A stretch of 64,000 bases of DNA from Candidatus Marinacidobacterium sp. (GCA_965262645.1 CBDHFO010000010.1:418-64417); one strand, 5' to 3'. Counted from the stretch's first letter, positions 1 to 41,538 are shown. Program-made: numbers and translations. Notes: a model not told the origin generated them from the sequence alone.

Positions 1-584
1 GTGGGCGTCCTGAGACCCCTCAGCGGATTCGGCGCGAGAAGGAACTCGCCCCGCTCGTCTCTGGACTTGGCAGCCCAGTTGAGCACGGCGATCAGAAACT
101 TCAGGTCGTGCTCGATGGTCCGGTTGGACACCGGCCTCCCGCTTGGTCCGACCTTGCCCGACCGCCGCGCCCGGATGAACCGGTCCCAGTCGCGCTGGGA
201 AAGTGTCTCGGGACTGCGGCCCCTTCCGAAGAACCGGACGAACATCCGCGTCGCCGCCCGGTCGGACCGTTGAGATGTCTCCGCCTTGGTGGGCGTCACC
301 TCTTCACCGTAGATTTCAAACAGCTTCTCCAGGGTGAGCGGCTCGGGCTCGGCTTCCGTCTTGCCGTTCAGGTCCGGGGCGACGAAGCCTGCCGCGAACT
401 CGTCCGCTTGCCGCTTCGCCCTCACCCAATCGCGGTGCCCCAGCGACCGGGTAAGCCTGCGCCCGTTCTCGCGCCACTCAATCTGGTATAGGCCGGTCTT
501 GGCGTCGGGGAACACCCTCACCCGGTTCCGGCCCCATTCGCCGGCGCCGTAGGAGCGCCGACTTCGTTTCGTGCGTGCCATCAT
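1..584 (-). CDS. Tyrosine recombinase/integrase (element A), 5' part; runs off the left edge
   Basis: The minus strand from 584 reads MMARTKRSRRSYGAGEWGRNRVRVFPD..., close paralogue of the complete integrase at 5490-6656. Confidence 0.9.
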   Translation of the reverse strand, partial: MMARTKRSRRSYGAGEWGRNRVRVFPDAKTGLYQIEWRENGRRLTRSLGHRDWVRAKRQADEFAAGFVAPDLNGKTEAEPEPLTLEKLFEIYGEEVTPTKAETSQRSDRAATRMFVRFFGRGRSPETLSQRDWDRFIRARRSGKVGPSGRPVSNRTIEHDLKFLIAVLNWAAKSRDERGEFLLAPNPLRGLRTP

Positions 585-850
585 TCGATTCCTCTCGTGA
601 TGGACTGGGCGGAAAAGATCGCAACCTTCGGTAACACAATAGGTTAGCGTACATCGCACTGAGTGCTGTATCACTTCAGATACCCGATTCTGTGCTGGAA
701 TCCATGCGACTGCATCGGAAGTCGCCGGACGGGTTTCGTGCGATTCGAGCGAGCCATAGGGTCTGGGCCGCCGTCGAGACGGCGTGGGCGCTGGCTCGTA
801 GCACCATTGGGTTTGGTCCTCCTTCCGTCCGGGTTGGGAAGGGGGCTCGA

Positions 851-893
851 CCCCGGCCTACGGGACGGTTTGAAACCGTCCCGTAGGCCGGGG
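851..893. repeat. Perfect 43-bp palindrome, REP-like (GTAG type)
   Basis: CCCCGGCCTACGGGACGGTTT-G-AAACCGTCCCGTAGGCCGGGG, 21-bp arms. Confidence 0.8.
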
Positions 894-1105
894 GGACCGG
901 CGCCGAGGCGGCGGGAGCACGGCCGCACGCATACCGCCGGTCCAGGGCTCAGGCCGGCAAAGCACCTCAGCAGACTGGGTGAACCGGGGCTCCGGGGCGG
1001 GCGGGGTGGAAGAGCCATTCGAGGCCGCCGCCTGCTCCATCGGCCTTGGTCTGGCGGGCCACCGATGCAGCCCGCCGGTCGCGCCGCCTTCGAGACTGCG
1101 TTGCC

Positions 1106-1202
1106 GCTGGCTTGAGCCACGCTACGGTGGCTAAGCCAGCTTACCCTTTGTGGGTACAAAGGGGCTGACGAGGGGTGGCGTCCGCCCCCCTTCGATCCCC
1201 CC
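1106..1202 (-). other. oriT-like site (ColE1/MOB-HEN type)
   Basis: Inverted repeat GCTGGCTT...AAGCCAGC. Minus strand GTAAGCTGG^CTTAG matches the ColE1 nic CTGG^CTTA. Homologous to other copies in the window. Confidence 0.7.
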
Positions 1203-1431
1203 GGAATGCGCGCGCTCCGTCGGAGGTCGCGGGCGTGGTTCGCGCCCCTCGTGTCGGCAAGTCCTGATGGCCATCAGCCATCGCCGCCTCGAACCGACTC
1301 GCTCCGCGAGCGTGCCCTCCCTTTGGACCGGGTCTGGACGGAGGCCGCTTTCTGCGGATATCTTCACGTCCTGCTCGGCAGCGAAACAAGGCGCTGCCGA
1401 GATCCCAGCCCCCCTTCCCTGAAACCCCTCC

Positions 1432-1680
1432 ATGGCCCGGTGCTCCGTTGAAGGCTGCGACCGCCAGTCGAAATCCCTCGGCTACTGTCGTGCCCACTAC
1501 CAGCGCTTCAAGAAGGGCAAGCCGCTCGACGATCCGCCGTTGCGCCAGGAGTGCTCGATCAAAGGGTGCAGACGAATCCACCACCGCGACACCTTCTGCG
1601 ACCCCCACTACGAGCAGTACCGCGAGGTGGTGAAGGCGCTCGACGAGGCGAGAGAGGAGAGCTCGGCGCTGTTTAGCTGA
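1432..1680 (+). CDS. Small protein with two Cx4C...CxxH putative zinc-binding repeats
   Basis: CSVEGC...YCRAHY and CSIKGC...FCDPHY; ATG start. Confidence 0.7.
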   Translation: MARCSVEGCDRQSKSLGYCRAHYQRFKKGKPLDDPPLRQECSIKGCRRIHHRDTFCDPHYEQYREVVKALDEAREESSALFS

Positions 1681-1840
1681 TCTCCTTCCAGCTTGGGATT
1701 GCTGGAGGGGAGGACTGTCCTCGCGCCCGCGAGGCGGGCCGTCTGCTGGTTGGCCGCAGCGAACCAGTAGTATACCTTGTTGCAGTCCCAGATCCCTCTC
1801 CCAATCCAAAAGACCCCATCGAGAAAGGTGCTCATCCGAG

Positions 1841-2236
1841 ATGCGAATCGTCGCCATTCTTCCCCTGCTTCTCACCACTGGCTGCGCGACCCTGTTCAAC
1901 GAGGGAACGAAGTCGGTCGCAATGTCATCCAACCCCACCGGGGCCGAAGTGTGGATTGACGGCGCCCGGCGAGGGACGACACCTATTTCACTCGATCTGA
2001 ACAACCACACGAGCCACACGGTCGTGTTTCGCCAAGAGGGACATCAGGAGGTAACGTGCCAGCTGACCACGTCGGTCGGTGCCGGGTGGGTGATCCTGGA
2101 TGTACTCGGAGGGCTGGTCCCCGTCATCGTCGACGCGGCTACGGGGAAGTGGAACAGCTTGGACCAAGGCGTGTGCAACGTCGTGCTTCCGGCAGCCCGA
2201 GGGACGAACTGGGAAGAAGATAAGAAGTCCTACTAG
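1841..2236 (+). CDS. PEGA-domain lipoprotein
   Basis: Lipobox LTTG-C; SNPTGAEVWIDG...GTTP PEGA signature; C-terminal WVILDVLGG..IVDAATG.W. Confidence 0.85.
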   Translation: MRIVAILPLLLTTGCATLFNEGTKSVAMSSNPTGAEVWIDGARRGTTPISLDLNNHTSHTVVFRQEGHQEVTCQLTTSVGAGWVILDVLGGLVPVIVDAATGKWNSLDQGVCNVVLPAARGTNWEEDKKSY

Positions 2237-2449
2237 GACCCGGTTGGTAGCTCAGCTCGGCCGCCGGTGCGGGTCTGTTTGTGTCATCCGGCGCCTTTTG
2301 CCGTTCCTTGGCCCATGAGTGTCTTCGGGTGGTTGACGCTACCGGCCCGCTGATCTGCGGAGGAAACCGAGTCCGAGCCCGACGAGGACGGGGGTTTGGG
2401 GCGGGCGGTGCACCTCGCCGCCCGCCGCTCCGGCAGCGGGGCGAAAAAG

Positions 2450-2820
2450 CCGGGGGTCCAAGGGGGGCGGAGCCGCCCCTTGCCAGAGCGCGAATGTTTT
2501 ACATCGCGTAGGCTGGCTTACGCACCTTAGGAGCGTGAGCCAGCCCTCGGCGGAGCCGCCGAAACCGCCTCCCGGGTCGCCGGCCGGAACAGCGTCCACC
2601 GGGCCGTCGCCGGCAAGCTCCCCGGCCTCTTGGCCGCCAGCACTCAAGGACGGCGCGCCGACGTACCCCGGCGCTCCCGCCACCCGGTCGCATTTCGCCC
2701 TACCCGTACCCCTCCGGTACCGGAGATCGTCGATCTGGGGCGATCCTACGGCCCGTATCTACCTCGAAATGTGCGTGGACCGCCGGGAAAACGGCCTCCG
2801 AGCTCTTCGCGGAGGCGACC
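2450..2820 (+). other. oriT module (nic, IR and ~270-bp conserved tail)
   Basis: GTAGGCTGG^CTTA at ~2508-2520, IR GGCTGGCT...AGCCAGCC, and a tail ending CCCTACCCGTACCCCT...GAGATCGTCGATCTGGGGCGATC. Homologous to 10870-11270. Confidence 0.7.
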
Positions 2821-2822
2821 GC

Positions 2823-3986
2823 CTATCGCTGCGTGACGTACTCGCTCCACGCCTGCATGACCTCGGCGCGGCGCTCCAGCAGGTCGGAGCGCTGATACGC
2901 CTGAACGACCTGGCTGCGCGGGACGTGGGCGAGGCAGGCTTCGGCGACCTCGGCAGGGACGCCCGACTCGGCCATCCACGACCGCGCGCTCGACCGGAAC
3001 CCGTGAACCGTCGAGGCGACTCCGGCGCGGCGAAGCACGCGCCCCGGCGCGTTCCTCGGCAACACCCCGCCGGTCCTCGACGGAAACACCAGCGACGATT
3101 CGGGAGACAGCGCCCGCGCCCGCTCAAGCACCTCCAGCGCGCCCGTGCTCAACGGAACGGAGAACTCGCGCCCGGCCTTCATCCTCGACGCCGGGATCGT
3201 CCACACGCCCGCCCCCAAGTCGATCTCGTCCCAGCGCGCCCCGCGCGCCTCTCCGGCCCGCACCGCCGTCAACGCGATCATCTCGACGCACAGCGCCGCC
3301 GAGGGATGTATGTACCTGACCCGGCGGATCGCCCCGAGCGCCGCCGCGACCTCCCGGTGCGGAAGCGCGCGGTAATGCCTCGGCGCGTTGCCGTTCGCCC
3401 TCGGCAGCGCCACGACCGCCCGGTCCACCGGGTTGTCCGGGCGGAGGTTGTTCCCAATGCACCAGCGGAAGACGGCGGAGATCCGGTTCCGGGCCTTCCG
3501 GCCGGCGGCGGGCTTCGAGTTCCAGATCGGCGCGAGGCACCCCAGCACGTCCGCGCTCGTGATCCGGTCCACCGGCTTGTCAAGCAGGGGCGCGGCGTGG
3601 AGGCGGAACGTGGACTCCCATTGCTCGGCCATCGTGCTCCCGGCCTTCCAGCCGTCGCGGTGCAGCTCGATGGTGCGTTCGGCGGCCTCGGCGAACGTCG
3701 GGACGCCGCGCCCGCGCGGGTCCCCGCCGTGGCGGACCGCCCGGCTGTTGTCCAGCGCCTTCCGGCGCGCCTCGGCGAGCGTGATCTCGGGATACGGCCC
3801 GAGCCCGACCGAGGTCAGCCGCCCCTCGATCCGAAGGCGCTGGCGCCACGTCCTGCTGATGCGGCCGGTTTTCGTCCGGTGCACCCGGAGGCTCAGTCCT
3901 CGCCCGCCTCGCCCGTCGCCGTAGACGCCGGGACGGTTGACCGTGCGCACGAAGGCGGCGGTGAGCGTCCTGGGTCGCTTCGTCAT
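2823..3986 (-). CDS. P4-like tyrosine integrase with N-terminal arm-binding domain
   Basis: N-terminal arm domain (GLSLRV...GLGPYPEITLAEAR); catalytic R (AVRAGE), K (RMKAG), HGFR, LAH, QAY. Confidence 0.93.
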   Translation of the reverse strand: MTKRPRTLTAAFVRTVNRPGVYGDGRGGRGLSLRVHRTKTGRISRTWRQRLRIEGRLTSVGLGPYPEITLAEARRKALDNSRAVRHGGDPRGRGVPTFAEAAERTIELHRDGWKAGSTMAEQWESTFRLHAAPLLDKPVDRITSADVLGCLAPIWNSKPAAGRKARNRISAVFRWCIGNNLRPDNPVDRAVVALPRANGNAPRHYRALPHREVAAALGAIRRVRYIHPSAALCVEMIALTAVRAGEARGARWDEIDLGAGVWTIPASRMKAGREFSVPLSTGALEVLERARALSPESSLVFPSRTGGVLPRNAPGRVLRRAGVASTVHGFRSSARSWMAESGVPAEVAEACLAHVPRSQVVQAYQRSDLLERRAEVMQAWSEYVTQR

Positions 3987-4354
3987 GGGTTCCTTCCCTG
4001 AGGTTGTATCACTTATTGCAACACTACACACGGAAGAATACACCGGATGGCGGCAGACCGCAAGGGACGTGGAGATTACCGTAAATGCCGATAAACCAAC
4101 GTACTACAGGATGTTACTGGACTACTGGAGGACGGCTATGGATCGTGTTGGAAGATGGCAAGGCAGTTCGTGATGGACTGCACGATCTGCGCGACGGAAA
4201 CTTCGCGGAGAGAAGCCGTATCCGCCAGAAGGAAGGGATCGGAGCGCGTGGTATCCTCCCCGAAATGGAGGCGGAGACGAGCTGTCTGGCAGCCGATCCG
4301 GAGCGTCACGATCATCGAGTGTGAAGCGGTGACTTGAAGGCGGTTTTCGACGCA

Positions 4355-4870
4355 CCCGATGCCGATCCAGAGGCGCACATGTGACATCGGAGTCGATGTG
4401 CAGGAAAACGCGTTTCGGACGTGCACGGCACCGGTTCCGCAAGTTGCGGAACGGCTTGGGGTTGTGCCACGGCCATCGGAGCGGCGAGGCCGAGCGGGAC
4501 CTCAAGGCCGTGGACGGGAGTGACCCCCCATCTCGGCATGCCTCGATCGGCATCGGGGAGGATGGCGATGTGCATCCCCATCTTCCCCTACGCTGCGGGG
4601 TCACTCCCATCCAGCAGTCCCGTGCGGGAAGGCCACGGCGAGCCGTGACGGGGGCTCGTCCCGGTCTTGCTGGGCGATGCCGAACAGCCCGACGGCCACG
4701 CGGTCGGCCAACGGGTCCTCCTCCGCCTAGAAGCCGCGCTCGACACCCTTCCGGGACGGATCGCTGGTTCGGGAGCGACCCCTGGTCGGCAGGGGCGAGG
4801 GTGTGAAAACACGCTCGGCGCTATGCCGCACCGAGCCCTCGGCGAGGGGGGTCGCTCCCGCCACGGCCGG
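4355..4870. repeat. Conserved structured non-coding block, copy A
   Basis: 4355-4670 aligns with 7932-8250 and 4750-4865 with 10300-10410; nested inverted repeats GGGAG(T/C)GACCC...GGGTC(A/G)CTCCC. Confidence 0.7.
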
Positions 4871-5354
4871 TGCGGCCGGTCCGGCAACCGACGGGCGGGC
4901 CGCATGGCCGCAGGACGTTGCGGGCGCGGCGGATACGCGCCCGCCGCCATGTGAATCGCCGGAGCGCAGAATCGTGAAACGACCCCCCGTGTCGTTTTCA
5001 CGCTCCAGTGCGGCCCAAGTCGGAGCGGTCGGGCACCGTCCAACCCGCCTCCGGCGAATGCACCCATTGTCCGCGGCACCCGCGTTCCGCCCACACTCCG
5101 TGGGGTGCCGGACTGACCGGCCTCCAAGACGAAAACAGCGCTTCGTGGCTCGGACGGCGGGCAAGCCCGAAGTGTCTCCACGGTTGGTCGGGCCAACCGG
5201 CCCACACGATTCGCGGCAAGCACTACTGCGTCGATGGCGATGGAGTTTCAACGGCCTCCAGGCGGTCGAAGTGACCGCCGACGGCGCCTTGGACCCCGCT
5301 GCCGAGAACCGCCCGCAGGGTGTCGTCGGCGACCGCTTCGAGGGGCGTCCCCAA

Positions 5355-5397
5355 GGCTGGCTCCTGACCCGGTATTGGCCGGGAGCCAGCCTACCCC
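5355..5397 (-). other. Left half of an oriT split by element B (attL)
   Basis: IR GGCTGGCTCC...GGAGCCAGCC followed by TACCCC, where homology to intact oriT copies stops. It resumes at 14582. Confidence 0.75.
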
Positions 5398-5489
5398 ACA
5401 AATGCTATGAAGTCTGCATCTTACTGTAGAGTTTGGAGTTACAGGCTTGGCGGTCCTGATTCCCGCCGATTGGTTACCGCCGATTCGGA

Positions 5490-6656
5490 TCAGGCCCGAC
5501 CGTTGCGGCGGCGGTTGTCCAGAGCCTTCCTGAGTTGTACCGCGTCGGGTTGCTGATAGCAGCGCAGCACCGTCTGAGCCTTCTTCCAGCCGCCAAGCTC
5601 GCAAAGCACCTTGAGCGGCAGGTCCATGAGATCGGAAGCGAACTTGCGACGGAGCGAGTGCCAGCCCCGTCCCCGCCTCGGCTCCAGTCCCGCGAGGGTC
5701 TCCGCCTTCTTCCACCACTTGTGGGCGGCAACGCGGCTCATGCAAAGCGTGGCATCCCTCGGCGACGGCAGCACCGGGCCACTCGTGGTTCCTTCGCTCC
5801 TGCTTCGTGCCTCTTCCAAGGCGGCGACCGCCTCGGCGGTAAGGGGTGTTACGTGCTCGTAGCCGGTCTTCTCGTGCTCCGCGCGCCACCGGACCTCGCG
5901 GCCCTCGATGTCGATGTCATCCCAACGGAGCTCGCGGATGGCACCGATCCGGTGCCCGGTCTCGTGCGCGAGCACGAGCGCGACATGGAACCGCCAGCCG
6001 ACCTGCCGGGAAACCCCGAGCAGCGCCTGGTATTCGTCCTCGGTGAGGACGACCCGGTTGGGATTCTTCTCCTTGGGCTTTCTGAGGCCCTTGAGCGGGT
6101 TGGAGTCGAGGAGCAGCCGTCCGTGTTCGTCCCTTGACCTTGCGGCCCAGTTGAGCACCGTCATCAGGAACGTCAGGTCCCATTCGATCGTCCGGTTGCC
6201 TACGGGCTTGCCCGAGCGTCCGGCCCTGCCCGCGCGCCGTTCCCGGATGAACCGATCCCAGTCGCGCTGCGACAGTGTTTCGGGTCTTCGGTCCCGTCCG
6301 AAGAAGCGGAGGAACATCCTGGTCGCGACCCGGTCGCGCTGGCGCGTCCGTCTCCCCTTCGTGGGCGTCACCTCTTCGCCGTAGATGTCAAAAAGCGATC
6401 CCAGCCTGAGCGGCTCGGGCTCGGCTTCGGCCTCGCCGTTCAGGCCCGGCCCCGCGAAGCCCGCGGCGAACTCGTCCGCTTGCCGCTTCGCGCGCGACCA
6501 GTCGCGGTGTTTGAGGGACCGGGTGAGCCTGCGCCCGTTCTCTCGCCACTCGATCTGGAAAATGCCGGTCTTGGCATCCGGAAACACCCGGACCCGGTTC
6601 CGGCCCCATTCGCCAGCGCCGTAGGAGCGCCGACTTCGTTTCGTGCGTGCCATCAT
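5490..6656 (-). CDS. Tyrosine recombinase/integrase (element B)
   Basis: R (GHRIGAI), K (HEKTG), HSLR, GGW, catalytic Y (RCYQ). The start MMARTKR is inferred from the paralogue at 584. Confidence 0.93.
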   Translation of the reverse strand: MMARTKRSRRSYGAGEWGRNRVRVFPDAKTGIFQIEWRENGRRLTRSLKHRDWSRAKRQADEFAAGFAGPGLNGEAEAEPEPLRLGSLFDIYGEEVTPTKGRRTRQRDRVATRMFLRFFGRDRRPETLSQRDWDRFIRERRAGRAGRSGKPVGNRTIEWDLTFLMTVLNWAARSRDEHGRLLLDSNPLKGLRKPKEKNPNRVVLTEDEYQALLGVSRQVGWRFHVALVLAHETGHRIGAIRELRWDDIDIEGREVRWRAEHEKTGYEHVTPLTAEAVAALEEARSRSEGTTSGPVLPSPRDATLCMSRVAAHKWWKKAETLAGLEPRRGRGWHSLRRKFASDLMDLPLKVLCELGGWKKAQTVLRCYQQPDAVQLRKALDNRRRNGRA

Positions 6657-6979
6657 TCGATTCCTCTCTTGATGGACTGCACGATCTGCGCGAAGGAATC
6701 TCGCTGGACGAAGGCGGCTTGACCAGTGCGATACCCGCGCTGTTGGCTTCTCGAAAGCGATGGAGGAGCGCTGCCGGAAGCCGGTCCGCGTCCGGGACGG
6801 CACCGGACGGCTCGGGACTATGGCCCGCATACGCGACTTGACGCCGCCGAAAGCCCTCTTCCGATTCTGTCGGCAGTGACAACCTCCACGGTTCTCGGTC
6901 CCGACCACGGAACCAGGGTGCGCCCGTGGGAATTGGGAACCCTCATGTACTGCAAAGCCCTCGACCAACGGCGGCCTTG

Positions 6980-7915
6980 GTGATCGACCATCTACAGGGG
7001 CGCGAGAAGGCGCTGGAGCCGTTCGGCTTGACGGGCCGCCGCGCCGAGTGGATCGCCTTGGCGAGCCTGCACGGAGGCGTGTTCACCCGCAAGCAGTTCT
7101 CTGCGTGGCTCGGGGTCAGCCGCTTCACGGCGCTCCGGTTCGTGCAGGGCCTGAGGGACCGAAGGCTGGCCGCCGAGGAGATGGTCGGAGACCTGAAGGT
7201 CTGCCGGATCTGCGCGCGCGGCATCTACCGCGCACTGGGTGCCGAAGGCGTGCGCCACCGGAGGATCACCTCGCCCGAGGTGGCCATGCGCCGCCTGCTC
7301 TCGTTCGACTACGTGATCGAGCACACCGGCCTGCCCTGGCTGCCCACCGAGCCGGAGAAGGTCGCCGCGTTCGAGGTGCTCGGCATCGGCCGCTCGCTTC
7401 TGCCCGTCCGGGTCTACCGGGGCGCGGCTAGCGGCGCGCGGCGGTACTTCCCCCGCGGGATGCCCGTGGCGCTGGACTCCCGCCGCGCCGTGTTCGTGCA
7501 CGCCGATCCCGGCTACGATACCTCGACCGCGCTCCGCTCGTGGCGGGATCGGCACCATGGGCTATGGGAAGCGCTGAGGGAGCAGAGCCTGTCGGTCGAG
7601 GTCGCCGGGGTCGCAGGCGGCCGGAGGGAACTCGAACGCGCACGGACGATCCTGGGAAACTGGGTCGGCGCCGCTACCGCCCAAGAACCCAACCAGCAAC
7701 CCAAGACCATCGCAGCCGTCCGGCGCGAGATTGCGCGCGTCGAGAATGCCATCCGGGGAATGGACGACGCGGCGGTCAAGGAATTGGGCGGTCTCAACGG
7801 CTGCCTTCACCGCCTCGTTGAGATGAGGGCTCTGCTCCGATCGGCCCTCCCCGGAGGAATGATCCACGGCTATTCGGTATGGGTTTCGAGCCGCTTCTCC
7901 GGGGGCGGGATTTGA
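6980..7915 (+). CDS. Conserved hypothetical protein with N-terminal winged-helix-like region; possible replication/regulatory protein of the element
   Basis: Divergent from the integrase. Motifs H(G/S)GxFTxxQ, IYRxLG.E..RHRR, RLLxxDYV, LPTE.EK, RYF recall an ICE-associated hypothetical family (recalled, not searched). Confidence 0.7.
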   Translation: MIDHLQGREKALEPFGLTGRRAEWIALASLHGGVFTRKQFSAWLGVSRFTALRFVQGLRDRRLAAEEMVGDLKVCRICARGIYRALGAEGVRHRRITSPEVAMRRLLSFDYVIEHTGLPWLPTEPEKVAAFEVLGIGRSLLPVRVYRGAASGARRYFPRGMPVALDSRRAVFVHADPGYDTSTALRSWRDRHHGLWEALREQSLSVEVAGVAGGRRELERARTILGNWVGAATAQEPNQQPKTIAAVRREIARVENAIRGMDDAAVKELGGLNGCLHRLVEMRALLRSALPGGMIHGYSVWVSSRFSGGGI

Positions 7916-7931
7916 CCGCCCATGGGCGGGT

Positions 7932-8250
7932 GCCGTTGCCGATCCAGAGGTGTCCGTCAGACATCGGGGTCGTTGTGCACGAGAACCGCGTCCGGACGGG
8001 ACACACCGCCGATGCCGCAAGTTGCTGGCGTACTTTCGTTTGTGCCGAAGCCGCCGGGGCGGCCGTGACGCGCGGGCGCTTGCGGCCGTGGACAAGCGAC
8101 CCACCTGTTCGGCATGCCTCATACGGCACGGCGACGGCTGGGATGTGCACTGCCATCCCACCCGCCCGTGGGGTCGCTCCCGGTCCATCAATCCCGTGCG
8201 GGAAGGCCAATCGGTGTGCCGGGACGGGCACGTCCCGATTTGTCGGCCCC
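7932..8250. repeat. Conserved structured non-coding block, copy B
   Basis: Aligns with 4355-4670, e.g. GCCGATCCAGAGG, GACATCGG, CCGCAAGTTGC, TCGGCATGCCTC, TCCCGTGCGGGAAGGCCA. Confidence 0.7.
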
Positions 8251-8312
8251 GGCCGTGGCTCACGTCCGGTGTGGCCCGGCAATTCGTCGTTGCGCCCGCC
8301 TCGCGACTCCAT

Positions 8313-10010
8313 CTACGAGGTCCGGTTCCGCTGGTGCAGGCCGACGAATCCGACGATGACGCGTTCGTTCTGCTCGTCCCAGGCGAAGGCGATCCGGATC
8401 GTGTGGTGCGGGTCGTGACTGGTCCCCTTGCCGAGGTGGGCCGCCAGCTCCCATGCCGTTCCGTTGACGCGGGTCCGGTACCAGTCCCGGAACCGTCCCA
8501 TCGTGGCGGCGGACGTTTTCGACTTGTAGAACCAGCCCGGACAGGTTTCCCCGATTCGATCGGTCGGGCCGTTCCGGTATGCCGTGGCGAGCCACGCCAG
8601 CGCGTCGAGCACCTCCGGGGGGTTCACGAACGGCGTGTCCTCGTTCGAGCGGGAGTTGAGCTTGATGAGCAGCCTGTCGGGGAACATCTCACGTGCTTGG
8701 GCGATGGCCTCGCGAACGCTCCCCACGGGCTCTGCGGCCACCGGCTCTCCGTCGTGCACCCGGGCCTTCCTGCGTTCTTCGATGTAGGCGCGCCTCCAGT
8801 GCTCCTCCATCCTCCGGCTGCGCAACGCCTCGTCCCGGATCCGCCCGGCCTCGTCGTCTCTCTGCGTCTTCTCCGCCCGGAGTGCCCGGTTGTCCTCTTC
8901 GAGGCGCTCGCGCTCGCACCGTAGGCCCTCCACTTCGAGCAGGACGGATTTGTCCTCGTTCACGGTCGATCCCGAGGCGGGTTCGGTCGCCGCATCGGCA
9001 CCGTCCGCCGCCCCGGGCGCCGGGCGCGCCTCCACGGCGTCAGCCTCATTCCCGGAGGCGTCCTCGTCCGGCGGGTCGGGCTGGGCAACGCGCTCCCGCC
9101 ACGCATCGACCGCCGCGAGAATGGCGTCCTCGCACTCGCGGCGCTGTACGGACCGCTCGAGCTCCTCGGCGCGCGAGGAGGCTTGGGGACGAATCGGCCC
9201 GTACGCCTCGAAGCTGACTTCCAGGTAGATGAGGAACGGGAGTGCCGAGTCGGTCAGCGCGGGCCGGTCCTCGACCAGTCCCGGCCAGGGATCCGGGTCG
9301 ATCCCGAGGTAGCGGAGTTCCTCGCCGAACCGCTCGCGAAGGGAGCGGCAAAGGCCCACGATTTGCTCCCGGCACCAGCCGAGGAGTTCGCGCTCCTTCG
9401 CGTGCCGGATGTCCTCCATCCACTGGATGAGGGTGTCGGCTTCCTCCCACTCGGGCGCGCTGGGCGGGAGATCCCCCAGGAAGTCGAGCCAATCCTGGAA
9501 GAGCGGGGACACAAGCGGCGGTGGTGCGGGAAAGCGCCGGGCGAGAAGGCACAGCATCAGCCCGGCGGACTCGCGGTCCACCGCGTCGTCGACCGCCGCC
9601 AGTGCCTCGCGCTCGCTCCGCCATTCCTCGCGCGTCCAGAAGGAATCGAATCGCGCGTCGGGTGGCTCGGGCACGGGCATGCCCCGGCTTGCAAGGCGCG
9701 CGGCGGTCCGGTCGCGAAGCGCGTCGTGCGAGTCCACCCAAGCATTGAGAACGGCGCGGGCGAGGTCCTGATCGTGGTGCTGGATCGCCTCCATTACGGG
9801 CTGGAGGAGCTTGGGTCGGGGCGCGCGGCTCGCGTCCCGGTATCCGTCCACCCGAAGACGCCGCAGTGCAGCCCCGCGTTGTCGGCGAAGCGCCTTGCAC
9901 TCGGAACGGTGCTTGAGGGCGCGCCGCACCACACGGCGGCGGAAGTCCTCGCTGAAAAGGGGGAAGAGCTCGCCGGGAGTTCTCGGTTGAGTCGTAGGCT
10001 CGGTAGTCAC
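8313..10010 (-). CDS. Coiled-coil protein with C-terminal RelE-like candidate nuclease domain
   Basis: 565 aa, GTG start with AAGGAG RBS; C-terminus HLGKGTSHDPHHTIRIAFAWD...VIVGFVGLH. Confidence 0.7.
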   Translation of the reverse strand: MTTEPTTQPRTPGELFPLFSEDFRRRVVRRALKHRSECKALRRQRGAALRRLRVDGYRDASRAPRPKLLQPVMEAIQHHDQDLARAVLNAWVDSHDALRDRTAARLASRGMPVPEPPDARFDSFWTREEWRSEREALAAVDDAVDRESAGLMLCLLARRFPAPPPLVSPLFQDWLDFLGDLPPSAPEWEEADTLIQWMEDIRHAKERELLGWCREQIVGLCRSLRERFGEELRYLGIDPDPWPGLVEDRPALTDSALPFLIYLEVSFEAYGPIRPQASSRAEELERSVQRRECEDAILAAVDAWRERVAQPDPPDEDASGNEADAVEARPAPGAADGADAATEPASGSTVNEDKSVLLEVEGLRCERERLEEDNRALRAEKTQRDDEAGRIRDEALRSRRMEEHWRRAYIEERRKARVHDGEPVAAEPVGSVREAIAQAREMFPDRLLIKLNSRSNEDTPFVNPPEVLDALAWLATAYRNGPTDRIGETCPGWFYKSKTSAATMGRFRDWYRTRVNGTAWELAAHLGKGTSHDPHHTIRIAFAWDEQNERVIVGFVGLHQRNRTS

Positions 10011-10619
10011 TGGGGGCAGCTCCTTGCCAGGAATGAGTCTCTCGCCCTCCACCCGGAGGGAGAGGTGCGCCAACGGAGGGAGGCGGCGGTCTCCGCCGCT
10101 CCCCATGTCCGACCAAGATTCGGCGCATTTCACGCTCCTCGGCAAGATCGGCCCCGCGAGCCGAGCCGGCCCACCCACCCGATGGCGCGGTGCAGCAAGG
10201 GCGGAACGGTGGCGCCGTTCACGGGCTGGAGGTCACCGGCAGTGGCCTTCAAACCATCCGCGCGGCCGCCATCCGCGGGTCTCGGGCCGCCTTCCCGAGC
10301 AGGGATCGCTGGTCTGGGAGCGACCCGAGAGGGCGGGGCCGGGGGTGCGCAAACGCGCCCGGCCCCGAACCCGTAGCAGGCCCTCGGACTGCCGGGTCGC
10401 TCCCAGCCCCGTCCGACTGAGCCCCGCGGCCCCGGCCGCCTTGGGACAGCGAGGTGCAAAGCCTTCGCGCACAGCAGCTTCCGCCGCCCCGCCGGTGCGC
10501 ACGTCCGGGGCGCCAGGGTGCGCATCGGTACCCCTTGTCGATTTCGCGGGCGTATACGGCCATGACCCACGGCGCCAGAGGTGCGCAAATCATTGGTGGA
10601 GGACTCCCGCGAGGCGAAC

Positions 10620-10854
10620 CGTCCGCCATGTGTCGGCGCGTTGCATCAGCTCCGGCTGGTCGGCGAGCCCGGAGCGCCCTCTCTCGATGACGACCAGGTG
10701 GGCGACGACCTCGACCGCCTCGGCAGCCGCCTTGTGGCCGCCGGCGCACCAGATCCGACAGCGTCAAGCCCGCCGAGCGCGCCTTGGCGTGCCACTCGGC
10801 ACGCTCCGCGTCGCTCACGCGGACCTTCACCCACACGGCGCGTCCAGGGCTCAT
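10620..10854 (-). pseudogene. mobC: mobC (RHH relaxosome accessory) remnant with internal deletion
   Basis: VWVKVRVSDAERAEWHAKARSAGLTLSDLVRR, then in another frame AAEAVEVVAHLVVIER; next to an oriT. Confidence 0.75.
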
Positions 10855-10869
10855 GACGCGCCGTTGGCG

Positions 10870-11270
10870 AAGTAGGGGTCTGAGGGGGCACAGCCCCCCG
10901 CCAGCCTCCGCAGGGGACGCACGGAGTGTGGCCCCAAGGAGTATGCTGGCTCTACCGCCTTAGGGTGCCAGAGCCAGCCCTGCGGACGGCCTCCGGCACG
11001 CCTCTCCGGGGACCGGCCCGGACAGCAGCCTCCGGGCCGTCGCGGGCAAGTTCCCCGGCCTCTTGGTCGCCAGCCTCACAGACGGCGAGGGCGACGGTTG
11101 CCCCGTCACTCCTCGGCGACGGCGGCGCTCTCTCCCGCGCCGCCGCGGTTCCGCCCCTACCCGTACCCCTCGGAGACCCAAGATCGTCGATCCTGGGCGA
11201 TCATTCGGCCCGTAGGTTACCCGAATAGCCCCCAGCACGCCCGAAAACGGCCTCTGAGCCCGTCACGCCC
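10870..11270 (+). other. oriT module of element B
   Basis: CGGAGTGTG...GTATGCTGG^CTCTA resembles ColE1 GGAGTGTATACTGG^CTTA; IR GCTGGCTCT...AGAGCCAGC; tail includes AGATCGTCGATCCTGGGCGATC (11181-11202). Confidence 0.72.
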
Positions 11271-11570
11271 GGTGGGACGGCATCGAGGCGACCACCACCC
11301 TGCGAGTGTGGTCGTCCCAGAAGTAGTAGATGCGTCAGGCACCGCCTCGGGTCCCGGGTGTTCGTGCCGTTCTTGATGTGCCAGTCCACCGTGTGACGGC
11401 GGCCGTTCCAAGTGCAATCGAAGGAGTCGCCTCCACACGGGAGATTGGAGACGCCCTCGCCAATGTCGCCGATCCGCCCGTGGAGATCGGAAACCCCACC
11501 CCGCAAGCGTCCATCCCGGTACTCGCGTCCTAGCCAACTCAGGCACCTAGCCAACTCAGGCACCGCGCCG
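11270..11570 (-). pseudogene. Fragment of the same C-terminal domain family as 8313-10010
   Basis: LSWLGREYR...WHIKNGTNTRDPRRCL, frameshift, IYYFWD...VVVASMPSH. Confidence 0.6.
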
Positions 11571-11839
11571 CCAAGCCCACGATCTGAAACTCGGCGCTGT
11601 TCAGCTCTCGCCGCGCCGATCCCGTAAGCGAGATCCGGCCCGCGAGATTCTGGTCGCACCACGGAGCACCCCGAGCTTGACGGCGCCGGACGGCATGGAC
11701 CCGAAGCCGCAAGACGCTGCCTCGTCAGCGGTTGGATGTCGAGCGACATGTGAATCGCTGGAGCGCTAAGGCGTGAATCGGACCCCCAGTTTGTTTCACA
11801 ACGCAGTACGGGCGTGACGCGGCGCCTTCATGGCATCCT

Positions 11840-12200
11840 GGAGGCTCGACCTCCCGGCCCGCCACTGTCACCCGGCGCTGGTCGTAGCGGACGCGGACCT
11901 CGCCGAGCGCGACGCCCTCGGACTGGGCCTGATGCCGGAGCGCCGCGCGGACCCTCGCCACAAGCTCGGTCGGCGAGACCGGCTTGACCATGTAGTCGGC
12001 CGCACCAAGCTCCCGTAGGTCAGCCGTCGGCCAGTTGGCCGCATCGAGCGCCTGGCCGTCGGCCGCCGGGAGCGTGAAGGTGAAGCGCGCCGAGGCCCGG
12101 CCTTCAGCTCTCGGCGCGAATGCGGCCGTCGAGCAACTGGACGAGTCCCTTCAAGATCGCCAGGCCAAGCCCCGCGCGCCACCCACCCCTCGGGTCGGCG
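11840..12200 (-). pseudogene. Histidine kinase C-terminal and response-regulator fragments
   Basis: GLGLAILKGLVQLLDGRI...RFTFTLP and GAADYMVKPVSPTELVARVRAALR. Confidence 0.65.
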
Positions 12201-12336
12201 CGCTCGCGGAAAAAGGTGCGGGCGCTGGTCGGGGGTGTTGGGGGCGGAGGAGGGACCGAACCACTTCTGACCGGTGTATCTTGGTGTTAGCTGTGGAACG
12301 TCCAGCGGACACGGCCCACTCACAAGGAGGAGAGCA

Positions 12337-12834
12337 ATGAAGAGGCTTATCATCTTCACCATGCTGTTGGCGGCGTGCGAGCCCGCGACCGTCTCAGACG
12401 CAGTGCCGAATGTGGACCCCGAAGCCGAAGCGACGGCAATGGCGATCGAACATGCAATCGCGATCCGCAACCTTCGGGCCGAAGCCCCGCTCGTGGCCGT
12501 GGTTACCACCGATCCATCCCTGACGAACGCTCTGAAGCGCCGTGGGCTGGTGGTGCGAACCGAGTCCGCCGAGACGTGCGAGCCCGGCGAAGTCGTCGAG
12601 ATGGATGACGGTCCCGTCCAGCTATCGCGGTGCATCATGATCGAGGGCCTGATAGAGCTTTCCGCATCGGTCGAGGCCCGCGGCGATGACGGCTGGTGGG
12701 TCAAGGTGGTCGAGCGGACTTCCGTCGGCGGTGTGGACAGTTATTCACACTGGAGCACCTACGCCCTTCTCGTTGAACGGCGCGATGGCGAGTTTGACGC
12801 GACGCTTGATCCGAACTGGGGCACCGAGACGTGA
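12337..12834 (+). CDS. Hypothetical lipoprotein
   Basis: AAGGAGG RBS; MKRLIIFTMLLAA-C lipobox. Confidence 0.8.
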   Translation: MKRLIIFTMLLAACEPATVSDAVPNVDPEAEATAMAIEHAIAIRNLRAEAPLVAVVTTDPSLTNALKRRGLVVRTESAETCEPGEVVEMDDGPVQLSRCIMIEGLIELSASVEARGDDGWWVKVVERTSVGGVDSYSHWSTYALLVERRDGEFDATLDPNWGTET

Positions 12835-13313
12835 GGGCCGCAATGGTGATCTTTGCGTTGCTGGGGGTTCCCTTCAGCGCGCCGGCGCCGGTGCCCGTAC
12901 CCCAGGACGTGTGTAGCGGATTCCGGGAGGTGACCCTGAGCTCCTGCGCATCCATGAGCCACGACAGATGGCTGGTCTACACGGCGTACTGGCGAATGGG
13001 TAGCAGCTACTGCAGAACTGAGAAATCGAAGTTCGACGACGCCTGGTCAAACGACCGATGGGTGATCTTTGGGGACGGGACGAAGTGGGATCCGGAAACC
13101 GGGCGCGTCAAGAGGATCGGGGGGTTCCACGAGCGGAGCAGTCACAGATCGGGGGTGACCAAGTTCACCTCGGACGACAAACAGATGCAACTCGCCATCC
13201 ACGAATCGCTCCATCACAGGTACAGGGCGTGGAACGAATTCCGGGTGAAGCGCGAGATCAAGAAGCTGATGGACCGGCTCTGCATCCCCCGGGGCCAGGT
13301 CATCAGTTTCTGA
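12831..13313 (+). CDS. Secreted protein with HExxH zinc-metallopeptidase-like motif
   Basis: Signal peptide; AIHESLHH; 4-bp overlap with the upstream gene. Confidence 0.65.
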   Translation: MRAAMVIFALLGVPFSAPAPVPVPQDVCSGFREVTLSSCASMSHDRWLVYTAYWRMGSSYCRTEKSKFDDAWSNDRWVIFGDGTKWDPETGRVKRIGGFHERSSHRSGVTKFTSDDKQMQLAIHESLHHRYRAWNEFRVKREIKKLMDRLCIPRGQVISF

Positions 13314-13761
13314 GCTTCGGTTGCTCGCGCGGGGCAGGCTTTCCGGCCCCCGGCGGATGGAAAGCCGCCGGGGGTCGTGCTTCAGGGGGGGATGGTTGCT
13401 GGTTGGCTGTCAGGCAACCGGGTCCCCTTCGTCCGTCGGCACCACCCAGCGCCAGCTTGCCTCGGGATCGCGCGTGACCTCGTTCTTCTCCTCGAGGCGC
13501 GCCAGGAGCGCCGACACCGAGGTGGCGAAGTTTCTGCGAGTCGGTTTGGACGCCGCCGGCGATCAGGGCTTCGGCGATGTCCCTGGGCCAGTGATGGCCC
13601 CGGGTTGTCCTTCAGGAACATCAGGAGCGCCTCACGGTGGTTCATGCCCTCGTACTGCCGGTCATCGGCCGCTTGGGAGGCCTCAGCGGCCGCAGGAGCC
13701 ACGTCGATGACAACGGTGGTCCGCCGGGAGGCTTATCTCCCGGGCGGACGGGCCGGAACCC

Positions 13762-13965
13762 TCAGTTCACCCCAGGGCGGCAAGTAGCAGATGTACTCGT
13801 ACTCATCCCGTCGCACACCACGTCGAGGAAGCAGAACCATCCGTCCCCCTGGATGCGTTCGCCATATGTGCAGTCGGATCCCCTGCAGGCCGCCGACGCC
13901 GGCGTGGTTGTCCCGCCAAGCATGACGACGAGCAGGGCGATCGCTACGGTGAGCAACTTCTTCAT
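13762..13965 (-). CDS. Small secreted Cys-rich peptide
   Basis: AGGAGG RBS; MKKLLTVAIALLVV...ASA signal; mature part Cx4C...WxCFx4CDx9C. Confidence 0.75.
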   Translation of the reverse strand: MKKLLTVAIALLVVMLGGTTTPASAACRGSDCTYGERIQGDGWFCFLDVVCDGMSTSTSATCRPGVN

Positions 13966-14419
13966 GATGTCCTCCTGTGAGTGTTGGCCCGCCCGCCGGG
14001 CGCTCCCGTGACTAGAAGATCGGGAGGAACAGGTCCGCCGGGTGGTTGAGTGTCCCGAACGGACGCGCCAAGAATCGGGTTGGGGGCCACGGGCCACTCC
14101 CGGGATACTGACCACGGCGGTTAGTCGTGCGGTGGCTCCGGTGGGTGGGGAACGGCTCCTTGGAGATCCGCGGCTGACCATCCAGTCCGGGCCACAGCTA
14201 CAGGATGCGGTCCCACGCCGAGCTCTCCAAGGCGATCCATGCGACCGCCGCCCGATCTGACGCTGGACGCGCGGCGCGACGATTCATCGCCGGGCCGCAG
14301 AACCTGGACAGCTCGTTTTAGCGCATCCCTGACCGGGTATGGGGTCGGCGGCGGAACGGGCGTACTGGGCTCGGCCTAGTCCTTGGAGGAGCTACCCGGG
14401 CGGCCTCTAACGGCATCGA

Positions 14420-14581
14420 CCTGATCGGTCCGTATTCCCGCCGTTTAGTCCTGCATTCCGGCTATTTCAGGACGGCGAAATCAGATAATTCTCCAACGGC
14501 AAGTGCGGCAGATCGTGCAGCCCTGATTGAACTTACGTGATTTCTTGCCGTGATTTGGGCCTTTAGTGTTCCGCCTACCCC
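14420..14581. promoter_or_regulatory. Right end (attR) of element B
   Basis: Arm-like GCGGGAA/GCCGGAA repeats, CTGCACGATCTG box and core GCCTACCCC. Inverted homologue at 32920-33075. Confidence 0.65.
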
Positions 14582-15152: not shown

Positions 15153-16427
15153 TCAGCGGTTCGGACAACGCGCGTGCCTGGGGTAGAACCAGCACCGGGC
15201 ACCCGCGCTAACCAGCATGTCTCCGATGGCAGACAACGTCGACACCCATTCCTGACGGCCCTCACGCTCCGGCGGCTGATTGCGCCAAAGGTCATAGGTG
15301 CTCAACACCTCCTGTAGGACCGAGCCCAGGGCCATCCTTGCGTTAACATCCGCGCCCGCTTCGATCAGCATGCGCGCGAGCGGAATCGCATTAGCTGGAT
15401 CCGAAGCAGGCCTATCCCCGTAGGGGGGGGAATGGACGGTTGCCGACAAGACCGGCACACCGAGTGGCGCATAGCTTACGTCCGCTCCAGCGCCAATCAG
15501 GATCTCGGCCATACGAATGTCGTCCTCGATCACCGCCGCTCTGAGAGGTGACCGGCCATCCCTTCGATCGGTTGTTGCGTTTACATCCGCGCCAGCCTCG
15601 ATCAGCAGCTCCACTATCTCCACATTTGATGCTTCCACCGCATGAAGGAGCGGCGTGGCCCGATGTTCATACGAGTCGCCGTCGGACACAGTCGTGGTTA
15701 CTCGATCACGGGCATTCACGTCCGCACCAGCCTCGATCAGGATCTCCGCTACCTCCGTATGCCCTCGGCCAGCCGCCCAGTGAAGCGCCACATAGCCACC
15801 ATAGCCACTCGGGGCGGGAGCATTCACATCCGCGCCTGCCGCGATCAGGGTCTCGACTAGTTCCGTACTCCCAGCCTCAGCGGCCCAGTGCAACGCGACA
15901 ATTCCGCTCTCGTTTGGCGCGTTCACGTCAGACCCCGTCTCCAAGCAAATCTTCACAACTTCAATGTCGGCGGACACGACAAGACCGGGCCATCCCCCGT
16001 CACACCCCGCTTCCCGACGCGATTCCGCATCCGCTGCCATCCGTTCGACTCGATTGAGAATCTGGAGGGCCGCTGTATAGTGCTCGCCCTCCCGACCCGT
16101 GACTTCCAAATAGCGTACGGCCGAAGTCTCCGCTCTGGCATGAAGTCCGGCTCCCAACGCCGCTTGGGCGTCCCGGAACCAGAAAGTGTGCGGAATCTCC
16201 AAATTGGATTCCTCGCCCAGGGTACGAACTGATTCCAACGCTGCAATGGCCGCGTGGTAGTCGCCACTGGCGATGTGCTCTTCGGCTTGGAGCAGGTACC
16301 GGTCCATCTGGATGGCAGGCGGCAGGTCTTGAGCGAAGGCCGGGGCCGGATCGTTGACCACCGCGAGGAGCCCGACCAGAATCAAGAAGGGAACCGAGGG
16401 TGCGCGTGCGAAGCTCGTCGTCATCAT
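15153..16427 (-). CDS. Secreted ankyrin-repeat protein with N-terminal TPR-like helices
   Basis: Signal peptide AFA-Q; about six repeats of type ALHWAA...LIxAGADVNA. Confidence 0.9.
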   Translation of the reverse strand: MMTTSFARAPSVPFLILVGLLAVVNDPAPAFAQDLPPAIQMDRYLLQAEEHIASGDYHAAIAALESVRTLGEESNLEIPHTFWFRDAQAALGAGLHARAETSAVRYLEVTGREGEHYTAALQILNRVERMAADAESRREAGCDGGWPGLVVSADIEVVKICLETGSDVNAPNESGIVALHWAAEAGSTELVETLIAAGADVNAPAPSGYGGYVALHWAAGRGHTEVAEILIEAGADVNARDRVTTTVSDGDSYEHRATPLLHAVEASNVEIVELLIEAGADVNATTDRRDGRSPLRAAVIEDDIRMAEILIGAGADVSYAPLGVPVLSATVHSPPYGDRPASDPANAIPLARMLIEAGADVNARMALGSVLQEVLSTYDLWRNQPPEREGRQEWVSTLSAIGDMLVSAGARCWFYPRHARCPNR

Positions 16428-16608
16428 TGGAGTACCGTTCCTTGAGATTGGGCAGCCACGACCGCTGACCGGGCAACATATCAACCTGCCTTATTCAGGG
16501 ACATGACCACTGGCAAGAGTCTAACAGGGTCGGCAAGCGTTCGGAAACTTCAGACCGTGCTACATGCGAAAGCGAAGGAAGAACCCGGACGGCGATTTCA
16601 CGCCCTAG

Positions 16609-32919: not shown

Positions 32920-33075
32920 AGGCGTAGAACTGGTGGTGTGGATTCACGGCAAGATATCGTCCAAGTTCAACTGGGACTGCACGATCTGCCGTTCTTGCCG
33001 TTGGCACATATCTGGTTTCGCCGTACCAAATTAGCGGGAAAACGGCATCAAATAGCGGGAATTCGGATCGTATCT
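32920..33075. promoter_or_regulatory. att-like end homologous (inverted) to 14420-14578
   Basis: TCACGGCAAGA...AAGTTCAA..GGGACTGCACGATCTGCCG...TTTCGCCGT...TAGCGGGAA twice. Confidence 0.65.
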
Positions 33076-40687: not shown

Positions 40688-41538
40688 CTAGCAGCGATAA
40701 CTGGCTGACAGATTTGCCATTGGAGGACTGGCACGGAGTATCAATGAACACTGGCGGCCGTGTGCGGATCCTGAATCTCGTCACTAACGGCTTGGCCGGT
40801 CCGATTCCTCCGGATATCGGAGCCCTGACCAAACTGGAGTCGCTGGGCTTGGCTGACAACAACCTGACAGGTCCGATTCCCCCGGAAATCGCAAAGCTGC
40901 TCGAATTAAAGGTCTTGTGGCTCCATTTGAATAACCTGACAGGTGAGATTCCCCCGGACATCGGAACTCTGACGAACCTAGAGAGCCTGTTACTAGCCCT
41001 CAACAACCTGACGGGCCCGATTCCCCCACAACTCGGAAACCTGATCAACCTGCGGACATTGGTCCTCGCCGACAACGCCCTGACGGGCCCGATTCCTCCA
41101 GAACTCGGAAACCTGATCGAATTGACGCACTTGTGGCTCCAGGGAATCGCCTTGACGGGTCCGATTCCGTTGGAACTCAGAAACCTCACCGCGCTCAAAT
41201 CCTTCCTCTACTATAACACCAGCCTTTGCGTTCCCGACGACGACTCCTTCCGCACATGGCTGAATAACATCCCGGACCACCAGGGAACCGGAGTAGACTG
41301 CAAGGCATCTAGTGGATTTCGCGACGATTTTTCCTCCTCGGCAAGTCTTTTCAACTGGACGCTAAAGGGTGCACGTGCCACCATATCCGATGGTGCCCTG
41401 AGTCTGACAGAAGACAGCACTTCATGTGCCAGTGCATTTAGAGATCACGACGGGAAAGGCTGGGATGTAAAGGAGCTGCGGATGCGTGCAGCCAGCACTG
41501 AGAGCATCGGTTTGGTAGTGTTGCGCTTCGACGTAGAT

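Follow-up and report, generated by a model that had tools for sequence, protein, structure and literature searches.

We analysed a 64,000-nucleotide stretch of DNA from Candidatus Marinacidobacterium sp. (GCA_965262645.1, CBDHFO010000010.1:418-64417; hereafter the window), near the start of which a reduced integrative element with a tyrosine integrase gene of its own lies next to int-A, the integrase gene of another mobile element (Table 1). The element measures 3,573 bp between crossovers (4180-607) and is bounded by the 13-bp direct repeat TCGTGATGGACTG, exact at 595-607 and 4168-4180, of which a third copy with one mismatch is found at 6667-6679. The int-A gene starts at an ATG at position 584 on the minus strand, 10 bp from the repeat. 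This arrangement had been described in an earlier model-generated interpretation of the same DNA (hereafter the sequence-only reading), and the repeat and its position proved exact on re-reading.

The same reading held that the excised junction resembles an uninterrupted paralogous region. In silico removal of the 3,573 bp bore this out, as the resulting junction aligns with the uninterrupted paralogue upstream of a neighbouring int-A gene, int-A', and carries the restored box that is typical of int-A starts. In addition, the right flank (4172-4859) shares 72% identity across 703 bp with the DNA upstream of int-A at locus L269, which is uninterrupted; collinearity with uninterrupted int-A loci elsewhere spans 470-703 bp, at 70-72% identity. 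The presence of a 3,573-bp, att-bounded element next to int-A is thereby confirmed. An assembly artefact, or a chance repeat in a repeat-rich metagenome contig, is suggested by the abundance of insertion sequences (IS) on the contig that contains the window (C10) and by the lack of contig cover of positions 4220-4330, at 99% likeness, in four sequencing runs. We regard it as very improbable: the inner sequence of the element is present without differences in the run contigs of two studies (contigs indicating presence only), both ends match profiles built from other genomes, as described below, and the empty site is collinear with the other int-A loci over the lengths given above.

Table 1. Features of the element, of its insertion site and of the neighbouring int-A' element (positions in the window)
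Feature	Position	Strand	Basis or remark
Reduced integrative element	595-4180	-	Direct repeats at both ends; empty site matching paralogues
Tyrosine integrase, IntSXT/P4 type, 387 aa	2823-3986	-	Pfam domains above cut-off; motif residues
Integrase-proximal att	4164-4180	-	Host half CAGTCC 4175-4180, 5-nt overlap 4170-4174, element half GAACTG 4164-4169; position and element half same in 61/62 ends
Integrase-distal att	595-607	-	Element half CAGTCC 602-607, identical 5-nt overlap 597-601, then host ribosome-binding-like GAGAGG and int-A start
AAGTGATAC, likely arm-type integrase binding site of far end	668-676	-	Conserved in alignment of nine far ends; putative function
AAGTGATAC, second copy, upstream of integrase start	4006-4014	-	Putative function
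Target box GCAGATCGTGCAGTCC of int-A host element	4175-4190	-	Conserved cis site; doubles as 3' end of xis-like gene where intact
xis-like remnant, 22 codons	4170-4237	-	tblastn, residues 111-132, E 9e-5
Host integrase int-A, 5' part	1-584	-	Open through residue 333, at contig end
Cys/His-rich cargo ORF, 82 aa	1432-1680	+	Near-identical ORF in L280
PEGA-domain cargo protein, 131 aa, lipoprotein-like N-terminus	1841-2236	+	PF08308, E 2e-8
Non-coding block common to 13-15 other loci	1095-1250		Between alpA and mobC in L003
Second shared non-coding block	2390-2815		Resembles DNA just upstream of mobC-like gene at 10249-10854
Neighbouring int-A' element	5389-14581	-	GCCTACCCC repeats 5389-5397 and 14573-14581; two empty boxes 6674-6689 and 14508-14523

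The product of the integrase gene matches, above the Pfam cut-offs, Arm-DNA-bind_3 (PF13356), Phage_int_M (PF22022) and Phage_integrase (PF00589), with E values of 1.6e-12, 1.5e-15 and 2.5e-19, respectively; we take PF13356 to be the DUF4102 of the IntSXT survey cited below. The R-K-H-x-x-R-H-Y set of residues, which catalyses recombination in this family, is present in the expected motifs (R243, K270, H328, R331, H354 and Y364). The best plasmid-encoded relatives have at most 42% identity with this integrase, and those found in viral contigs 40% or less. With its own integrase and att-bounded ends, the element has the makings of an integrative and mobilizable element (IME). It contains no phage genes, and its cargo consists of two small open reading frames (ORFs). 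No match to mobC, alpA or mobB was found inside it; fuller relatives such as L154 carry alpA, helix-turn-helix (HTH), mobC and mobB genes. Because this copy is devoid of these four genes, its excision would need a factor supplied in trans, or be rare; alpA genes of 39% identity are found on C17, a 4.5-Mb contig of the same genome. The two shared non-coding blocks, which are like transfer origins (oriT) by position only, are likely a transfer-origin region (the first) and a remnant of a second one.

In order to collect relatives of the integrase, we drew on metagenome contigs (best 80 of 522 matches), genome contigs (best 80 of 398, which gave 76 loci), 28 family genomes and viral contigs. Retaining sequences with at least 70% identity, N-terminus included, yielded 62 distinct upstream regions, that of this element and those of 61 relatives. 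Among the matches listed, the closest relatives mostly belong to genomes titled Gemmatimonadota, several of them Ca. Palauibacter. The host lineage appears to be sponge-associated, judging from the titles of these genomes, from two runs labelled sponge metagenome and from general knowledge of the group.

Collecting homologues and defining their att cores had been suggested as a check by the sequence-only reading, which took the enzyme for a P4-type integrase that does not use a tRNA gene; both the Pfam domains and the outcome of this check agree with that view. A core composed of a host half, 5 nt and GAACT is present in 61 of the 62 ends, at a distance of 192-196 bp from the integrase ATG on its upstream side; further upstream, the 62 regions share nothing element-like. 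None of the 61 mapped cores has a tRNA-like flank, the flanks being classed by translation and motif. Taken by itself, the direct repeat of our element exceeds chance only slightly, as a shared word of at least 13 letters arose in 17/1000 shuffles; it represents a real att pair because its crossover core is located 194 bp upstream of the ATG, within the interval found in the other ends. A profile built from nine far ends identified 14 distinct ones, including that at 595-607. Ten of them could be paired with a near end, and four could not; the 5-nt overlap is the same at both ends in eight pairs (this element, L133, L134, L137, L141, which was read by eye, L146, L147 and L160) and differs by one base in two (L130 and L197). 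The paired ends delimit elements of about 2.4 to 9.9 kb. One copy of AAGTGATAC inside each end of our element, conserved in the far-end alignment, makes this motif a candidate arm site. When 55 genomes of the order were searched for the far end at the DNA level, no copy but this one was found.

The host flanks place 51 of the 62 ends in 'PPEL' codons of leucine-rich repeats (LRRs), each of them translating as an LRR unit; 24 insertions are in sense orientation and 27 are antisense. In most sense insertions, the upstream part of the interrupted gene stops a few codons past the junction (e.g. PPELGTHLPV followed by a stop). The remaining ends are located in the box GCAGATCGTGCAGTCC (6/62) or in other genes (4/62), and one of the 62 lacks the core. 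A seventh box user, L167, was seen by its far end alone. That the wider clade targets LRR units is a greater surprise than the use of the box.

At L135, L128, L134 and L158, two elements of this clade lie head to head within one LRR gene, separated at L135 by a single 72-bp repeat. In two Palauibacter genomes, integrases of different branches occupy an identical site within one and the same non-LRR gene (L133:9800-16160 and L137:9800-19200). The window itself harbours a gene for an ankyrin-repeat protein (15153-16484) and an LRR block with unoccupied 'PPEL'-type units (40767-41190).

The seven box users make up one side of a single branch in the tree of 59 integrases, from which the short ORFs L135_323, L197 and L182 were excluded (ultrafast bootstrap 98, SH-aLRT 92, recovered in 99% of 200 bootstrap trees). 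Across different genomes and five distinct overlaps they have 16 bp of target in common, and LRR units are not among their sites. Related integrases are not independent of one another; their flanks all differ. About 20 alignment columns differ between the users of the box and those of LRR units. The integrase studied here pairs with that of L127 (88% identity, support 82/85), an element of another genome whose insertion, at the same position, disrupts an intact xis-like gene; its overlap matches that host type. These data bear on the idea that a low-specificity integrase landed off target, in a box that merely resembles its core and has no special tie to the host element. Ends found in neither LRR units nor the box (4/62), overlaps that vary and can mismatch, and the frequency of core-like words in this genome (21 AGTYC-N5-GAACT and 196 CAGTCC-N5-GA) speak for such an event. 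We nevertheless judge it unlikely, given that 7/7 members of a well-supported branch share a 16-bp target, well over the 6-bp half, across five overlaps and never in LRR units, and given the alignment columns that set them apart.

We characterized the box in the int-A elements that host it. Of 45 distinct int-A starts, 42 are preceded by it. In 12 of these 42 cases, a xis-like ORF of 138 residues, with a weak HTH_17 match (E 0.013, below cut-off), ends over the box; the other 30 are without an in-frame xis-like ORF, two of them being shortened by contig ends. As the box is nearly invariant with and without this ORF, it is kept as DNA. No full xis gene was matched in the present genome at E 1e-3, and the C-terminus of int-A falls beyond the contig end. 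The box also occurs in a second copy, as one half of an imperfect palindrome that adjoins arm repeats likewise present at int-A 3' ends. In 4/4 co-oriented pairs tested, a direct repeat of 9-12 bp occurs beyond the palindrome and beyond the int-A 3' end, which positions the palindrome within int-A elements, ~50 bp from their far end, between the host crossover repeat and the host arm repeats. We had considered an integron attC or a dif-like site for this palindrome, and dropped both since the direct repeats place it inside int-A element ends.

Five of the seven box insertions occupy this far-end copy, and two the xis/int-A junction. All five genomes of box-type relatives tested (5/5) also hold int-A. 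The sequence-only reading had proposed that the integrase targets a conserved box upstream of a host element's integrase gene. The choice of the box stands for this branch, all seven members of which use its sequence, L127 at the very same position; its location upstream of the integrase gene does not extend to the 5/7 insertions in the far-end copy, nor the box itself to the wider clade, with 51/62 ends in LRR units. Other targets were discarded: a tRNA or non-coding RNA target was ruled out, as there is no tRNA or tmRNA gene in the whole window and positions 1-12000 gave no Rfam match with E below 0.6; a dusA-type target, prompted by the ATGGACTG letters, was dropped, the flanks being the xis/int-A junction; and an IS remnant upstream of the box is unsupported, that DNA being int-A element backbone.

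Alternatively, the element might be a regulated switch of the sort proposed for helper-embedded satellites: retained at the xis/int-A junction, it would turn int-A expression back on when it excises and permit the host element to move. In favour of this, the box would be reconstituted without change by excision, int-A retains its start and a ribosome-binding-like sequence, L127 occupies the same position in an intact xis-int module, and the box is conserved even without xis. However, only 2/7 box-type insertions use the junction, 42/45 int-A starts are empty, an unrelated element of the IS1595 family lies at the same junction in L271, the host copy has no more than the 22-codon xis remnant and the guest lacks alpA, and no sigma-70-like promoter was found in 500-4500. 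We consider a switch of this kind unlikely. A dedicated int-A switch is not supported, in view of the missing xis gene of the host copy, the missing AlpA gene of the guest and the fact that no circle joint is listed in the runs, and the suggestion of the sequence-only reading that the insertion may control int-A remains weak. The element is likely a parasite of repeated sequences, not an on/off switch.

In the explanation that we favour, and consider probable, this is a reduced integrative element whose IntSXT/P4-type integrase likely recognizes a short, relaxed near-palindromic core, ~AGTYC-N5-GRACT, not a tRNA gene, with one subclade using the 16-bp int-A box. The integrase would bind arm sites within the element's own ends, in line with the established biology of tyrosine integrases, and cut on either side of a 5-nt overlap in the near-palindromic core, with a preference for matching overlaps. 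Any host sequence with a similar core and overlap might then be accepted, and multi-copy, dispensable sequences would supply such cores, namely LRR units for most of the clade and the int-A box for this branch. The box itself may be a protein-binding site of the host element. Insertion at the present site would leave int-A its start and ribosome-binding-like sequence and remove the box and everything upstream; insertion in the far arm would part the host core from the host arms. Either event is predicted to silence or immobilize the host copy until the guest excises, and the guest would gain a multi-copy, dispensable landing site among mobilizable elements. In the larger part of the clade, the same core chemistry would operate on LRR 'PPEL' codons, truncating or splitting LRR genes.

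A number of points weigh against this explanation. Recombination itself was not observed, and no circle joint going back 3,573 bp is listed in the contigs of the four runs, which drop rare forms. The host half at the present site, GAGAGG, fits the core poorly, and recognition probably extends beyond the 6-bp halves. The box group is small (n=7), and the proportions of targets are those of a sample taken from the best 80 of 398 and the best 80 of 522 matches. The trees group the box users without giving a direction of change between LRR use and box use, since their root is not fixed; a quick tree with two distant outgroups supported the box group at 80 and placed the root unsurely. Lastly, at L148, L269 and L279 the far-end box is not paired with int-A in the predicted orientation.

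We looked into the run contigs around the insertion. Joints linking 593-597 to 4171 were rejected as signs of excision, since other letters separate their two sides, which are 20-30 letters long; they most likely come from other int-A copies. The element was covered more deeply than the right flank (about 100 versus 17-41 in run X1; 4 versus 2 in run X2), which gives no copy number and was not used as evidence. The one RNA run among those listed contained 0.05 of the words. Near position 4190, at the xis remnant of the window, loose ends in runs X1-X4 lead into sequence of the intact-xis type. Other int-A copies in these runs may hold the same element.

Next, we compared the element with known systems. 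Integrases of the IntSXT subgroup, which comprises the P4, Sf6, epsilon15 and SXT clusters, insert at the flanks of tRNA, guaA or prfC genes (Smyshlyaev et al. 2021, PMC8138268). Our element resembles that subgroup in its arm-binding PF13356 domain, the att site near the 5' end of the integrase gene and, in fuller members, the AlpA gene. Unlike the IntSXT clusters as described there, this clade inserts either within LRR coding units, in both orientations, or at a cis box belonging to another element, and insertion at the ends of tRNA or tmRNA genes, as in the narrow P4 cluster, was not seen in the window or among the 61 mapped cores. Insertion in genes as such is common, because 43.4% of mapped islands are in coding sequences (PMC12424338).

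IMEs integrate into the oriT or into conserved genes of integrative and conjugative elements (ICEs); the target of IME_oriT, in Firmicutes, is the nic site, and accretion takes place at att sites (PMC5704250). Like ICE-targeting IMEs, the present element uses a tyrosine integrase to insert in a conserved cis site of another mobile element, which it would block until excision. Unlike the nic site of IME_oriT, the box is found at the xis/int junction and in an att arm, and the host element is non-conjugative, in Gemmatimonadota-related genomes. The arrangement is also reminiscent of the tandem accretion of IMEs and cis-mobilizable elements (CIMEs), in which an incoming element is added to one end of a resident (PMC5704250); accretion uses the resident crossover core, whereas here insertion takes place ~50 bp inside of the core or at the start of the resident integrase gene. 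Helper-embedded phage-inducible chromosomal islands (HE-PICIs) have an integrase clade that nests in prophage late genes, and they carry phage-satellite genes (PMC10111431). As with HE-PICIs, a single integrase clade repeatedly nests in another element and excision would restore the host locus; unlike them, the guest lies in an integrative element whose scanned ORFs include no phage genes, and it has none either. Tn916 needs no homology in the overlap and prefers AT-rich DNA (PMC5812530). Our clade shares with Tn916 and CTnDOT a large number of target sites and tolerance of mismatched overlaps, and it differs from Tn916 by identical overlaps in 8/10 paired ends and by GC-rich targets with defined motifs.

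The element is of the IntSXT type, a known kind of integrative element, with targets that are unusual and repeated; a literature search, mostly without subscription papers, returned no description of LRR or box targeting. IntSXT-group integrases have been described as making harmless insertions beside conserved genes, and this clade is found inside LRR coding units at 51 sampled sites, with one branch landing in a putative recombination or regulatory box of another mobile element. LRR genes play a role in the symbiosis of sponge symbionts. If the elements are active, they would offer a direct route for the truncation and rearrangement of such genes. More tentatively, a P4-type integrase family of sponge symbionts may have taken LRR units of eukaryote-like genes as att sites, reversibly cutting and shuffling host-interaction proteins, one branch acting as a recombinational lock on the mobility of co-resident elements by way of the att arm and the xis/int box; we consider this possible, with the odds against it. 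If active, the clade would also provide a natural series for target change in a tyrosine integrase, with about 20 residue differences.

Additional observations concern the int-A elements and other integrases of this genome. Further far-end int-A palindromes are found at 32974-32989 of the window and, in direct orientation, on C11 at 377, 3130 and 14628; none was found on C17. The IS1595-family element mentioned above (L271:1700-4290) lies exactly between the box and the int-A start. By eye, the int-A relatives L085 and L087 (68-72%) end at tRNA-like sequences, and the 74-83% group at varied non-tRNA sites. The int-A gene is highly multi-copy in G064, with 28 matches. Finally, C17 encodes at least six paralogues of the integrase, with 42-48% identity (near 2052678, 1726132, 4379137, 4454198, 3220164 and 49780). 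Several of them adjoin dispersed repeats of the GGGAACGCCGACCTC type, and two near-identical ones differ in their flanks, which suggests that these paralogues may represent further repeat-targeting clades.

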